Shown here: positions 1 to 16,080 of the stretch, one piece after another
How the letters are laid out: every line of letters starts with the position of its first letter
Numbering within the stretch: the stretch's first letter is position 1
Position numbers and translations under genes: made by a program
The notes under the pieces: model-generated
Seen by the model: the letters and a program-made list of their open reading frames with translations, nothing else
Told to the model about the DNA's origin: nothing
Database searches by the model: none
NCBI GenBank assembly: GCA_000004985.1
Contig: GG738906.1
Direction: 5' to 3' (one strand)
DNA from: Naegleria gruberi
Taxonomy: Eukaryota
DNA: 64,000 nucleotides

Positions 1-259
1 CAAACCCAAACCCAAACCCAAACCCAAAGCCAAACCCAAACCCAAACCCAAACCCAAACCCAAACCCAAACCCAAACCCAAACCCAAACCCAACCCAAAC
101 CCAAACCCAAACCCAAACCCAAACCCAAACCCAAACCCAAACCCAAACCCAAACCCAAACCCAAACCCAAACCCAAACCCAAACCCAAACCCAAACCCAA
201 ACCCAAACCCAAACCCAAACCCAAACCCAAACCCAAACCCAACCCAAACCCAAACCCAA
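1..259 (+). repeat. Telomeric repeat array (CCCAAA)n, about 40 units; the C-rich strand reads 5'->3' at the left end, as expected for a genuine left chromosome terminus. Two variant units (CCCAAAGCC near 27; CCCAACCCAAA near 92 and 240).
   Basis: Direct reading: perfect hexamer periodicity from position 1 to about 259. Confidence 0.95.
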
Positions 260-445
260 AACTAAACCCAAACCCCAACCCAAACCAACCAAAACTAAAC
301 CCAAAACTAAACCCAAAACTAAACCCAAAACTAAACCCAAAACTAAACCCAAAACTAAACCCAAAACTAAACCCAAAACTAAACCCAAAACTAAACCCAA
401 AACTAAAAATAGAATTCTTCTAAACCCAACCTTCAAACCCTAGCC
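260..445 (+). repeat. Telomere-associated variant array: about 10 tandem copies of the 12-mer CCCAAAACTAAA (283-408), flanked by degenerate telomere-like remnants (CCCAACC, CCCTAGCCCAAAA).
   Basis: Direct reading of 12-nt periodicity at 283-408; it grades from the pure hexamer into the variant and then unique AT-rich DNA. Confidence 0.9.
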
Positions 446-2626: not shown

Positions 2627-3617
2627 GGTGATACTTCAAGAGAATGGATGGAAAACTGAAAGGTACAGAAACAACTCCATTTTCACTGAAATTGATATCA
2701 TGATATGTAGACACTCTAATTAGCATATAATATCAATTTCATAAATATTGGTTCAGTAGATGTCGAGTTGTCAACTCTATCATTTTACTATAGAACTTTG
2801 ACATAAAATCAAAGATTATGCTCCAGCTCACTTATTTTATGTGCAATTAGTCTAGAACTGATAACACACATTCTATACACCATGTATATACATCTATACA
2901 AGTTTAGAAACAATTCATGATACTTTAATTCAGTCAATCAGTAAATGTTCAATGTCAAGAGTTATTATATCCAAGTGTACGCTCTATCTCAGCGAAAGTA
3001 CATCCAACCATCATGTAACTTTACCAGATACATTCAATCACACTGATATACATCTGGAATCAATTTCAATGTTTTAGAATTGAATTCAGTATGATAATAA
3101 TAACAATCTGTCAAATTGTCACATTTCAACATATAGAATATACTCCATATCATTCATTTTACAAAATGCCATACAAGTATCAAATATGAATACACTCCTC
3201 TTGATAAGGAGAACAATCTGATAAAGTTTCACATTGATGGCTCAGTATCTTCAAGTCAACTAAGGAACATATAAGGAAATTAATTAGGAAGAATCTTAAT
3301 TTCAAAATTAAATTTTACCATCATATCAAAATCATTGAATAATGAATTATTGATACAAGAATCATATGTTCAATTGTTATATTCATGTCAATAATCAGTG
3401 AAGGTACCATTTCATCAACCTTAGTGTTCACATCTCAATACAGTAAATGTGACTTAAACTTGAAATACAACCTATTTAGATGATATAATGATGATTCTAC
3501 ATAGTAACATGCATGTGAAATTGAATGTTGACACTTTTCATATTGTTATATTTATAGAGATGGTATCCAACAGTCAGTTCACAATATTAAATATTGAAAC
3601 TCATTCTGTATGGTATA
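2627..3617 (+). repeat. Subtelomeric repeat family A, copy 1 (at least 970 bp, truncated by gaps on both sides).
   Basis: 2648-3617 aligns colinearly with 4129-5095 at roughly 80-85 percent identity (e.g. gaaacaactccattttcactgaaattgatatcatgatatgtagacactctaattagcatat at 2648 versus 4129; ...cttagtgttcacatctcaata... near both ends). Confidence 0.85.
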
Positions 3618-3906
3618 NNNNNNNNNNNNNNNNNNNNNNNNNNNNNNNNNNNNNNNNNNNNNNNNNNCCGATTATTGAATATTGATTATTGAATTGGTGA
3701 ATAATCACTCTTGATAATGTTACTTATTCATATTGCATGCAAATCAACCTGATTCAATCTACAAAGGTTGGTAGTTGCACCACTTCGTGGCGAAACTATC
3801 CATCCACGATGAATCAACATATGATTCACTTCCATTCAACTCAATTTGACCGTTATAATCAATAAATCAATGAAATGTTTCTTTATTAGCAATACCTGTT
3901 CAATCT

Positions 3907-4130
3907 AACGAGTAGATTCACGTCCCAAACATTTGGCTTCTCAAAGTCCATATTTCAAAAGTTGATACTGACCTGACCTTTAAATATCTATCAATATAAG
4001 AAATGAAACCATCATATTTACATCATTAATAGATGATAAGAAATATAATCAATGATATGAATCTTCACTAAGTAATCTCTTAAATAACCCAAATAAATCA
4101 ACTCTGAATCCTAACCAAACCCCAAAACCA
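3907..4130 (+). repeat. Subtelomeric repeat family B, copy 1 (about 220 bp), ending in a telomere-like tract CTAACCAAACCCCAAAACC.
   Basis: Aligns with 8107-8320 at about 85 percent identity (aacgagtagattc.cgtcc.aaa.atttg.cttctcaaagtccatatttcaaaagttgatac.gacctgacctttaaatatctatcaa.ataagaaat.aaacc...). Confidence 0.85.
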
Positions 4131-5943: not shown

Positions 5944-6529
5944 TTTGAGTGTTCTTTCTAATTTACCTGAAAAAGTTTGTAATTAAGGTTGGCTTTATGT
6001 AAAGTGGAATGAAATTACAATTTATTACGTTACAAATTTCACTTCAACACTTTTCGATCATCCACAATTTTCTGATTTTCAAATTGTTTTTACAAAATTA
6101 CAACAAAATCTTCATGTTTACAAAGTAAACTCTGAATTCTTTCAAACTCTCTTCTCCTCCAACAATTTCTCTGTGGTCAACTGATACTTGATGATTTATT
6201 TGAAGAAACTGCAGTTTACAAAATTGTAAAAAGCTTTTATACAGGTAGTTTGGAATATTCTCTAGATGATGAAGCCTTCTCACTCTTGATTTTCTCACAA
6301 ATACATGATTCAAGGTTCTCTATCTTCACATTTAAAACATGAAATTCAAATATTTCATCTGATAATTGTTTTAAACTTTTTGGACAATAACATTCTGAAG
6401 AATCATGGCTCTCCACAGTGGTGGACTTTCCTCCGAAAACATCTCTTGTTCTGCTGATAACTTTTTTGATAACTATTACCAACACGTCTATTTGCCAAAT
6501 TTTCAGTTCATGACCAAACATTGATAGAA

Positions 6530-7948
6530 ATGGAATACGAACAATTTGTAAAAAATAAATCAATCTTAATACTCACAGGTTGTCTCCAAAAATTATTTGA
6601 TGAATTTGATGATGGTGATGGTGACAAATTTGAAAAGTTTACAAAAAAAATGACATCACAACCTATCACCGCACCTCTTGATCAACTTCCCGATGAATTG
6701 TTACTTTGTATTGTTACCTTCTCCACCAACAATCCTATTGACATCATTAAATTCTCCCACATTAACAAACGAATGGAGAGAGTATTAAATTCATATCCGA
6801 ACATCTTCCCCCAATTAATTACCTATGATCCTTTGGATCCACTTGACAGAAGTACCTCAAAGCTGATGAATGGATATTTATTTGGTAAATTTTGGGAAAA
6901 TCCACTGAAAAATGGTTTTGCAGTTTTGAAGGAGTTTACTAAGAGAGTGTTTGGACCCAGATCTAAAACATTAAGTAAAAAGAGTACAACTGGGATTAGG
7001 CAACCAGAAAAGTATCTGGGAGTGATATCTGAAATGAAACAGCAGGTAGATTCAGAGCAGAAGCTTGTTGATTGTTTGAAATGGTCAAGAAGAGACCCCA
7101 TTGGTATAATTAAGGCCATTGAATCTCGGGGACGAGCTGTTGAAAGAGCTAACACCTCAAGAATAACACATTTATCGTGTATATTATTCAGTGTAATTGT
7201 ACAGTTTACAATTGGAAAGTTAGCAAGTGTTCCCTCAAATGAAAGATCACTTGAAATGGGTTTATGGTGGCTCCCATATATATTTTGGCCATTAGAAATT
7301 ATACCTATTGTAACAAGTTTGGCGTGTATTGGAGCATCATGTACCAGTGTTGTTCGTGCTTTAAGAATGTTAATTATCAATCCTCAAAAACAGTGGAATG
7401 CTAACTTATATGATGGTATTGTTGTACTTCCATTATTTTATATTGCAACCATCACTGTATTGAGACTTTCAATCATATCGATAAGGACTCTGGTTTATGG
7501 ATCAATTGGCTTGGAGCTATCCTATTTTGAATCAGTGGTGAGTATAGCACTTACTAACAGATACTCGCAATATTTTGGCCTTTCAATGCTGGGATTGGCC
7601 TCTTTTCACAATCTATCTAGTTTGACAGGTACCTATAAACTGTCTGATCCTATCACTGCTTCATTCCTTAGTCTTTCTCTATTCAAATATAGTGGGAGTT
7701 TACTGAGCTTTATTCCACTTTCTCTAATTTCATGTATCATATCTGTTAAGGAGGTTATTTCCAATATCAAATCATCAGACAAGTTGGTATACTCGATACC
7801 TATGGGATTGGGATTGAGCCTGGGCCTACTAAGTTTCGGCCATTTCTCTTACTTGACATTTGCTCCAGCAACCTCTATATTTATGACCCTGTTTATTTCA
7901 ACATTGAAAAGAGAGAAAAAGGAAGCAATTTTGCTAAAGTGTTATTAA
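6530..7948 (+). CDS. F-box-like N-terminus plus polytopic membrane C-terminal domain; hypothetical protein. First ATG at 6530; the track ORF begins at a TTG at 6521.
   Basis: LDQLPDELLLCIVTFSTNNPIDIIKFSHINKRMERVL fits the F-box consensus (LPxEIL...I...L). The C-terminal 250 aa contain multiple hydrophobic helices. GC content and codon choice (ctg, ggc, gcc, ccc) are visibly higher than in neighbouring genes. Confidence 0.6.
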   Translation: MEYEQFVKNKSILILTGCLQKLFDEFDDGDGDKFEKFTKKMTSQPITAPLDQLPDELLLCIVTFSTNNPIDIIKFSHINKRMERVLNSYPNIFPQLITYDPLDPLDRSTSKLMNGYLFGKFWENPLKNGFAVLKEFTKRVFGPRSKTLSKKSTTGIRQPEKYLGVISEMKQQVDSEQKLVDCLKWSRRDPIGIIKAIESRGRAVERANTSRITHLSCILFSVIVQFTIGKLASVPSNERSLEMGLWWLPYIFWPLEIIPIVTSLACIGASCTSVVRALRMLIINPQKQWNANLYDGIVVLPLFYIATITVLRLSIISIRTLVYGSIGLELSYFESVVSIALTNRYSQYFGLSMLGLASFHNLSSLTGTYKLSDPITASFLSLSLFKYSGSLLSFIPLSLISCIISVKEVISNIKSSDKLVYSIPMGLGLSLGLLSFGHFSYLTFAPATSIFMTLFISTLKREKKEAILLKCY

Positions 7949-8106
7949 AATTTAAATAACATGCATCACGATTACAATTATATCTGTGGCTAATCTTGTA
8001 AATAAATGGTAAAAATATTTTACTGCCCTAGTAGAGACAAGTGGACAATTTTCTTTACATTAATCCATCAGTTCCACAGAGAAATAACTCTATAATGATG
8101 ATATCA

Positions 8107-8320
8107 ACGAGTAGATTCTCGTCCGAAAAATTTGACTTCTCAAAGTCCATATTTCAAAAGTTGATACGACCTGACCTTTAAATATCTATCAAAATAAGAA
8201 ATTAAACCTTCAAATTTACATCATTAATAGATCATAAAAATGCAATCAATGATAATCAATCTTCACAAAGTAATACCTTAAATAACCCAAAAAAGTCAAC
8301 TCGAATTCCAAACCAAACCT
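8107..8320 (+). repeat. Subtelomeric repeat family B, copy 2, ending in the telomere-like CCAAACCAAACC.
   Basis: Similarity to 3907-4130. Confidence 0.85.
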
Positions 8321-8530: not shown

Positions 8531-9664
8531 TTAGAAACACTTTCTGTGAACGATACCTGGACCGGCATCCTCATATTCTTCCTTCGTTATCCACATCTGT
8601 TGGAAAGTTGAAAGTGAAGCGAGGATGGATCCACCAATCCAGACTGAGTACTTTCTTTCTGGTGGAGCAACAACCTTAATCTTCATTGAGGCAGGAGCCA
8701 TAGCAGTCAATTCCTTGGTCATTCTTTCAGCAATACCTTCGAACATAGTAGTACCACCAGACAAGACAACGTTACCATACAAGTCCTTTCTGATATCAAT
8801 ATCACATTTACCAATTGAATTGAAAGTAGTTTCATGAACACCAGCAGCTTCCATACCAATGAAGTTTGGTTGGAACAAAACTTCTGGACATCTGAATCTT
8901 TCATTACCAACAGTGATAACATTACCGTCTGGCAATTCGTATGACTTTTCAACTGAGGATGATTCAGCAGCAACCTTCATTTCAGCTTCAAAGTCCAAAG
9001 CAATATAACAGAGCTTTTCCTTAATATCTCTGACAATTTCTCTTTCAGCAGTTGTGTTGAATGAGTAACCTCTTTCCATCAAAATCTTCATCAAGTAATC
9101 AGTCAAGTCACGACCAGCCAAATCCAATCTCAAAATGGCATGTGGCAAGGCATAACCTTCATAAATTGGAACAGTGTGTGAAACACCATCACCAGAGTCC
9201 AAAACAATACCAGTAGTTCTACCAGAAGCATACAAGGACAAGACAGCTTGAATGGCAACATACATTGCTGGAACTGAGAAGGTTTCAAACATAATTTGAG
9301 TCATCTTTTCTCTATTGGCCTTTGGATTCAAAGGAGCTTCAGTCAACAAGACTGGATGTTCTTCTGGAGCAACTCTCAATTCATTGTAGAAAGTGTGATG
9401 CCAGATCTTTTCCATATCGTCCCAATTGGTAACAATACCATGTTCAATTGGATACTTCAAAGTCAAGATACCTCTCTTTGATTGAGCTTCATCACCAACA
9501 TAGGCATCCTTGTTACCCATACCAACCATGATGGACTTTTGCTTTGGTCTACCAATAATTGAAGGGAAGACAGCTCTAGGAGCATCATCACCAGCAAAAC
9601 CAGCTTTACACATACCAGAACCGTTGTCAACAACGAGGGCTTGAACGTCTTCACAGAAGGACAT
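8531..9664 (-). CDS. ACT: Actin (377 aa, single exon).
   Basis: Full-length translation close to conventional actins ([23 protein letters not shown]...[17 protein letters not shown]). ATG at 9664, TAA stop at 8531. Codon usage is GC-biased relative to neighbours, typical of a highly expressed gene. Confidence 0.97.
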
Positions 9665-14501: not shown

Positions 14502-14573
14502 GGGGCCAGCGGAGAATTGAACCCCGGACCTCGTGCACCCTAAGCACGCATCATACCACTAGACTACTGGCCC
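14502..14573 (-). tRNA. tRNA-Pro (anticodon AGG).
   Basis: Minus-strand sequence GGGCCAGTAGTCTAGTGGTATGATGCGTGCTTAGGGTGCACGAGGTCCGGGGTTCAATTCTCCGCTGGCCC closely matches eukaryotic tRNA-Pro(AGG) (anticodon loop CTTAGGGTG, T-loop GGTTCAATTCC, 7-bp acceptor stem). No intron. Confidence 0.9.
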
Positions 14574-14858: not shown

Positions 14859-16080
14859 TTACTTGGATGAAAGACTTTCCTTCAAAATGATTGTCTTTAA
14901 ATTTTCCAATACTTTCCTAATATTATTGGTATCAATAGCACAAGTTACTTCGGTAAAAACATCAGCATCCTTGTTTTCACGGAGTGATTTGAATTTTTGT
15001 TCTATGAATTTGATGGCATCAGGAGCAGAATTCTTCTTACCACTATAATCTTTGAAGCAAGTCTCGGAAATATCAACCTTCTTGATCAATTCATTGAAGG
15101 AATCAACCTTGTTAAGGAAGAGCATCACTGGTTTATCATAAAAAACACTACAATTCACCAATTCTTCGAATAATAACATTGATTCATTCATTCTAATGGT
15201 ACTTGGATCTTCTTCCAATACTTGATTGTACTCAACTAGTGATACAACAAAAATCAAGGCTGTTACATTATCGAAAACGTGAATCCACTTCTTTCTCTGA
15301 TTTCTACAATAATTTTTTTGTTAACATTCATTACGAATATCATCATCATATGGCAGATTCATTAAATTAGTATTATTATTATTATTATTTGTATTATTAT
15401 TATCAAATTATTGTGTTCATAAATTATTATAAATTAATATTAAATACAAAAATAATTTCTTACCTTTGTCCACCTACATCAACTAAACGCATACCCAAAC
15501 CACCAAATTCAAATTTAGTTTCATGAACACCAGTAGTTCTCAATCTACAATGAAGAATATCATCAATAGTTGGTACATATTGACTAGAACCAATACGATC
15601 CAAATCATCTAAAAAGTAATTCAAGTTGTCAATAATTTGATAGGTAGAATGTCTTTGATGATAAGCTTGTTGGATCTTTTCATGTTTCCAAACGTATTGA
15701 ATAGATACCAATTTTGTAGAGTCAAAAGCGAGTGTATCAGCAGAAGATGATCGTTTTAAAATTGTTGCAATATGTTCATACAATGCAGAATCTTCCGTTG
15801 TTGTTGTTGTTGTTGTTGTTGTAGATCCTTGTTGTGTTATTGTTTGTGGAGAAATGAAATTCAATTGTTGTGCAGCATCAATAAGAGCTGCCATACCTAA
15901 AACTAAATTATTTTGAATGGTAATTTTGAAACTCATTAATTCTTCCTTGGAATAACCATTTTGATGAAGAATTTTAACTTGTTTAAATAATGTACTTTTA
16001 CCTGACTCTGAAATACCTAAGAGAAGAAGATTTACAGTATTATCAACAGCAAGTGTATTTTGATGGTGATGGTGAGACAT
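14859..16080 (-). CDS. Heterotrimeric G-protein alpha subunit, 2 exons: 16080-15464 and 15303-14859 (intron 15463-15304, 160 nt, GTAAGA...TAG).
   Basis: LLLLGISESGKSTLFKQVKILH (P-loop), DVGGQR|NQRKKWIHVFDNVTALIFVVSL, FLNKVD and TCAIDT motifs. Splice sites were read directly. The N-terminus (MSHHHHQNT...) is about 20 aa shorter than usual for G-alpha. Confidence 0.8.

Follow-up and report, generated by a model that had tools for sequence, protein, structure and literature searches.

A TTTGGG-type repeat array with a 12-mer transition zone at a probable chromosome end of Naegleria gruberi

INTRODUCTION

The 64-kb stretch of DNA that we analysed as a whole (hereafter, the window) begins in the middle of a unit of a CCCAAA tandem array. 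This raises the question of whether the array is a genuine telomere and, if so, to which organism and chromosome arm it belongs and how much of it was already known. A preliminary description, made from the sequence, had taken it to be a complete chromosome end of a possibly poorly described lineage.

Naegleria gruberi is a well-studied amoeboflagellate and a heterolobosean model organism, the genome of which was reportedly published in 2010. To our knowledge, it is the one known lineage outside the ciliates with a pure TTTGGG telomere, and TTTGGG is among the few non-TTAGGG motifs in Discoba.

The repeat itself has been noticed before. Fulneckova et al. 2013 (PMC3622300) screened 143 assemblies from across the eukaryotes for arrays of the TnAmGo type, judged these by scaffold position and orientation, and listed TTTGGG as the in silico candidate telomere of N. 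gruberi; the authors saw a "convincing pattern" of terminal placement across the assembly, and stated that experimental confirmation is required. Because that survey already named TTTGGG for the same genome, the observation in our window is a rediscovery of a published in silico result, and the novelty of the motif implied by the preliminary description falls away. More specifically, organism, assembly, motif, and basis of the call (i.e., terminal position and orientation) are all shared with the published candidate. The main text of that survey contains neither the 12-mer zone built from CCCAAAACTAAA nor a description of the subtelomere; otherwise, nothing substantive differs.

RESULTS

A polar array of TTTGGG repeats

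Read inward from its left edge, the window comprises the following elements:

1–260, minus strand: telomere repeat array, (CCCAAA)n on the plus strand, with a chance expectation of 0
255–299, minus strand: transition mosaic of hexamer, a CCCCAA unit, the first 12-mer, and the degenerate 12-mer ACCAAAACTAAA
300–407, minus strand: 12-mer tandem array of nine perfect contiguous copies of CCCAAAACTAAA (G-strand, TTTAGTTTTGGG)
408–451, no strand assigned: last degenerate telomere-like fragments (CCCAACC and CAAACCCTAGCCCAAAA) within AT-rich DNA

Tokenising of the sequence yielded 39 perfect CCCAAA units, plus 4 variants, between approximately positions 1 and 284. Perfect units form runs at 5–28 (4 units), 35–88 (9 units), 94–237 (24 units, the longest), and 243–260 (3 units), and the array is interrupted by a GCCAAA unit at 29–34 and by two 5-nt CCCAA units at ~89–93 and ~238–242. 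The count of about 40 units given in the preliminary description is therefore borne out, whereas the word "uninterrupted" slightly overstated the case in view of these three breaks. Tandem Repeats Finder reported a single period-6 array spanning 1–401, and the homogeneous (TTTGGG)n stretch at the start of the window measures at least ~250 bp. Relative to dinucleotide-preserving shuffles, the trimer of the hexamer was observed 38 times versus 0.00 expected. Neither CCCAAA dimers outside the array (on either strand) nor a second or head-to-head CCCAAA array were detected in the 64-kb window.

The C-rich strand lies 5′ at the left window edge, with the G-strand (TTTGGG)n on the minus strand and its 3′ end directed outward. 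All G-quadruplex motifs of the window map to that minus strand, between positions 5 and 257. Going inward, the array decays with a definite polarity, from perfect distal units through the mosaic and the 12-mer to single remnants. The locus combines three of the features by which a TnAmGo-type telomere is recognized, namely, a long T/G-rich tandem array, an outward-pointing G-strand, and repeats that are uniform distally and degenerate proximally.

The 12-mer zone

Within the mosaic at 255–299, the units follow each other in the order CCCAAAACTAAA, CCCAAA, CCCCAA, CCCAAA, and CCAACCAAAACTAAA. Over the entire interval 255–407 we counted 10 perfect copies of CCCAAAACTAAA, including an isolated copy at 255–266, and 1 variant copy at 288–299, in agreement with the roughly 10 copies that had been described as following the hexamers. 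The 12-mer corresponds to a CCCAAA dimer carrying two substitutions (CCC→ACT; Hamming distance of 2) and occurred 14 times in the window, 11 of them in the array, versus 0.92 times in dinucleotide-preserving shuffles. Most simply, it would be a locally amplified degenerate telomere repeat, and the zone that it forms is apparently a small subtelomere detail that has been undescribed so far.

Searching metagenomes for the 12-mer dimer returned 16 loci, all of them short internal repeats (some apparently coding) on unrelated contigs of 26 to 56% GC, and at none of these 16 loci did the 12-mer adjoin a CCCAAA array.

DNA between the repeats and the first genes

Beyond the last telomere-like fragments, the order of elements is as follows:

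452–983, no strand assigned: AT-rich noncoding subtelomeric DNA, ending at the contig edge
984–2605, no strand assigned: scaffold gap of 1,622 N, the sole connection of the telomere contig to the sequence that bears the genes
2666–3617, plus strand: copy 1 of a noncoding subtelomeric direct repeat (~950 bp), cut off by a 50-N gap
3907–4121, plus strand: 216-bp segment, duplicated at 8106–8319, just 3′ of the actin gene, with 89% identity
4129–5078, plus strand: copy 2 of the direct repeat, with 82.5% identity to copy 1 over 960 nt

The unique DNA that follows the repeats thus ends at position 983, where the gap begins, a feature absent from the preliminary description. Positions 408–983 have a GC content of 26% and show no similarity to the remainder of the window. 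A second gap, of 50 N, occupies 3618–3667. The start-to-start spacing of the two direct-repeat copies is ~1,460 bp, and a further copy could hide in the 1,622-N gap. We also considered a 161-bp subperiodicity within this repeat, for which autocorrelation gave no support. Altogether, ~5.5 kb inward of the telomere-type repeats is AT-rich (26 to 29% GC), internally duplicated, and devoid of any ORF of at least 70 aa; such low-GC, gene-free, duplicated DNA is the usual character of chromosome ends.

Given the outward G-strand, the inward decay, this AT-rich, duplicated, gene-free subtelomere, and the PMC3622300 survey, the array is very probably a genuine telomere of an N. gruberi chromosome, together with a telomere-proximal decay zone. 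That the end is complete, as initially claimed, cannot be shown, because the contig carrying it is tied on by a scaffold gap. This contig is only 983 bp long and contains no genes tying it to Naegleria.

The same gap bears on which chromosome arm the telomere caps. The array might be a real N. gruberi telomere on a contig that has been scaffolded onto the wrong arm, such that its true neighbours are not the genes described below, including those for actin and the F-box protein. Assignment to an arm rests on the mate pairs bridging the 1,622-N gap; right of that gap lies a repeat with a ~1.46-kb period, i.e., of the kind that confuses mate-pair scaffolding, and 408–983 shares nothing with the remaining window. 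However, the DNA right of the gap is itself subtelomere-like, being gene-free, AT-rich, and duplicated for ~3 kb, and a contig is placed by scaffolding programs only where several mate pairs agree. On balance, we regard placement on a wrong arm as unlikely, and it would leave the nature of the array unchanged.

Hexamer arrays in other genomes

Scans for (CCCAAA)6 returned more than 120 prokaryotic genome contigs and 16 viral matches, none of which was Naegleria-like and none of which carried the 12-mer. Nine prokaryotic MAG stretches and two viral ones carried CCCAAA or TTTGGG arrays, 6 to 19 units long and in both orientations, at their ends or close by; several of these fetched stretches were shorter than their contig, so that not all of their ends are established contig ends. 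On one of the nine, arrays of several different hexamers followed each other in a chain. The arrays on prokaryotic and viral contigs probably mark microsatellites at which the assembly broke off, or belong to misbinned eukaryotic fragments. Since arrays of at least six CCCAAA units are common at prokaryotic contig ends, whichever way they point, a hexamer array at an end is by itself weak evidence of a telomere.

These matches are relevant to a further reading, in which the array would not be a chromosome end. Instead, it would be a telomere-like block of interstitial location or an ordinary hexanucleotide microsatellite, and the break of the assembly or of the window at this position would be accidental. 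The sequence left of position 1 lies outside the window, hexamer arrays of six or more units occur in the aforementioned prokaryotic contigs (several at ends, in either orientation), and internal telomeric blocks are also present in many genomes (PMC3622300). Against this reading stand the telomeric orientation of the array, its distal uniformity and one-sided proximal decay, its length of more than 40 units, the lack of any head-to-head or second array in 64 kb, and the dominantly terminal score of TTTGGG in the N. gruberi genome (PMC3622300). We consider an interstitial or microsatellite origin very unlikely, and retain the interpretation of the array as a telomere.

In N. fowleri and N. lovaniensis, 12 loci reached via actin orthologues showed no telomere-type array; one contig end was reached among them, and no such array was present there. 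We found neither TER nor TERT in the 64-kb window, for which Rfam returned a tRNA only. Two isolated 9-mers in the window are permutations resembling a telomerase template, and we have taken both as chance matches.

Identity of the host

Gene content of the window was examined for its bearing on the host. An intronless actin ORF (8531–9664, minus strand; 377 aa) is identical over its full length (100%) to NAEGRDRAFT_55094 of N. gruberi, the next-best matches being other Naegleria actins and that of Willaertia (96 to 99%). Likewise, the ORF nearest the telomere (6521–7948, plus strand) matches the F-box protein NAEGRDRAFT_73574 with 100% identity; no homologues beyond the protein itself were found in 5.8 billion proteins. 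NAEGRDRAFT_73574 is thus an orphan that is specific to the species and lies at the chromosome end, and because it has no orthologue, synteny could not be followed via the telomere-nearest gene. These two identities place the window in N. gruberi (Heterolobosea) and remove the suggestion that the lineage is poorly described.

Two further features of the window are as follows:

14502–14573, minus strand: tRNA-Pro (anticodon AGG), the only Rfam or ARAGORN match in 64 kb
15304–15463, minus strand: GTAAGA...TAG intron of 160 nt in a G-protein alpha-subunit gene (exons at 15460–16080 and 14859–15303)

ORFs of at least 250 codons end in TAA (19), TGA (3), or TAG (2). All three stops thus terminate long ORFs, and the end of the actin ORF coincides with the exact end of the Pfam model, consistent with the standard genetic code that had been proposed. 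The accompanying statement on 40- to 60-nt spliceosomal introns stands in part: GT-AG introns are present, but the one intron that we checked is the 160-nt intron listed above. Cilium genes, also mentioned earlier, are represented in the window by CFAP61. The original exclusion of a ciliate host was right, given the use of three standard stop codons, the GT-AG introns, and CFAP61, to which the N. gruberi identity of the actin and F-box ORFs can be added. The repeat agrees with this exclusion, as a single CCCCAA unit against 39 CCCAAA units constitutes neither a TTGGGG array nor a ciliate-type TTGGGG/TTTGGG mixture.

NEG-M was an axenic culture, which speaks against contamination by a ciliate. 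It is most improbable that the 983-bp contig stems from a ciliate whose telomeres contain TTTGGG, as those of Paramecium do (PMC5855555), even though no gene on the contig links it to Naegleria, because Paramecium telomeres are a TTGGGG/TTTGGG mixture (PMC5855555), as opposed to one CCCCAA versus 39 CCCAAA units here, and because TTTGGG was scored as the repeat that terminates scaffolds throughout the N. gruberi assembly (PMC3622300).

DISCUSSION

With the array interpreted as a genuine N. gruberi telomere, its structure can be accounted for in terms of general telomere biology. Telomerase would add the distal hexamers and keep them uniform, using an RNA template that should hold ~1.5 copies of the complement, i.e., a permutation of 5′-CCCAAACCC-3′. 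In all probability, the G-strand would terminate in a 3′ overhang, be capable of folding into G-quadruplexes, and be bound by Myb/TRF-type and OB-fold proteins. Proximal repeats would accumulate mutations because they lie beyond the reach of telomerase. One mutated dimer (CCCAAA-ACTAAA) may subsequently have been amplified ~10-fold, by replication slippage or by unequal sister-chromatid exchange. The 250 bp of homogeneous repeats would represent a floor set by the assembly rather than the true telomere length.

Literature on the factors that this model calls upon is sparse. We found no paper in the searchable literature on Naegleria telomerase RNA, TERT biochemistry, telomerase activity, or subtelomeres; a nanopore paper on N. 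fowleri leaves telomeres unmentioned, and a TRF-like Myb protein is listed for N. fowleri in one paper. The telomerase template of Naegleria may thus be poorly described, as had been suggested.

Comparison with other telomeres places the array as follows. In Paramecium, macronuclear telomeres share the TTTGGG hexamer and are likewise made by telomerase, but they consist of a variable TTGGGG/TTTGGG mixture in which TTTGGG arises, as a minor or mixed product, by stuttering on one TTGGGG-type template (PMC5855555). In contrast, the window array is essentially pure TTTGGG, and its host is a heterolobosean with a standard code. Trypanosomatids, which are fellow members of Discoba, have TTAGGG telomeres that resemble the window array in their 6-nt TnAmGo-type unit, G3 tract, and strand polarity, and differ from it by one base per unit (A→T). 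TTAGGG has been proposed as ancestral for eukaryotes. Excavates have been inferred to derive from an ancestral TTAGGG type (PMC3622300). The A→T difference in each unit implies that the template of the telomerase RNA changed in the lineage of Naegleria.

The decay zone has a counterpart as well. Other eukaryotic telomeres, those of humans among them, possess proximal zones of degenerate variant repeats, in which mutated telomere-derived units separate the uniform distal repeats from the unique subtelomeric DNA, as they do in the window. Unlike such zones, however, where variants are mixed at random, the window has a clean 12-mer array, made of ~10 copies of a single mutated dimer.

We also considered a broader role for the 12-mer. 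The CCCAAAACTAAA/TTTAGTTTTGGG array could be a conserved element of many or all Naegleria chromosome ends, acting for instance as a binding platform for a subtelomere-specific factor or persisting as the relic of a former, or a longer, telomerase template. We hold this to be unlikely. Were the 12-mer conserved at Naegleria ends, or had it been left by a telomerase template of another kind, it would be of modest interest, and the N. gruberi telomerase RNA, which is still undescribed, would possibly be unusual.

In its preferred interpretation, the chromosome end is genuine but ordinary, and its telomere motif is already known. For experiments on the N. gruberi telomere, the locus offers a clean sequence to use as a probe, along with a defined junction; otherwise, it is mostly bookkeeping.

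One observation concerns the actin gene of the window. A 1,207-bp contig of Logan accession SRR3922091 encodes an actin protein identical to that of the window gene, and its DNA is only 95% identical. Accordingly, it is not the actin locus of the window; it is either a paralogue or derived from another Naegleria strain.
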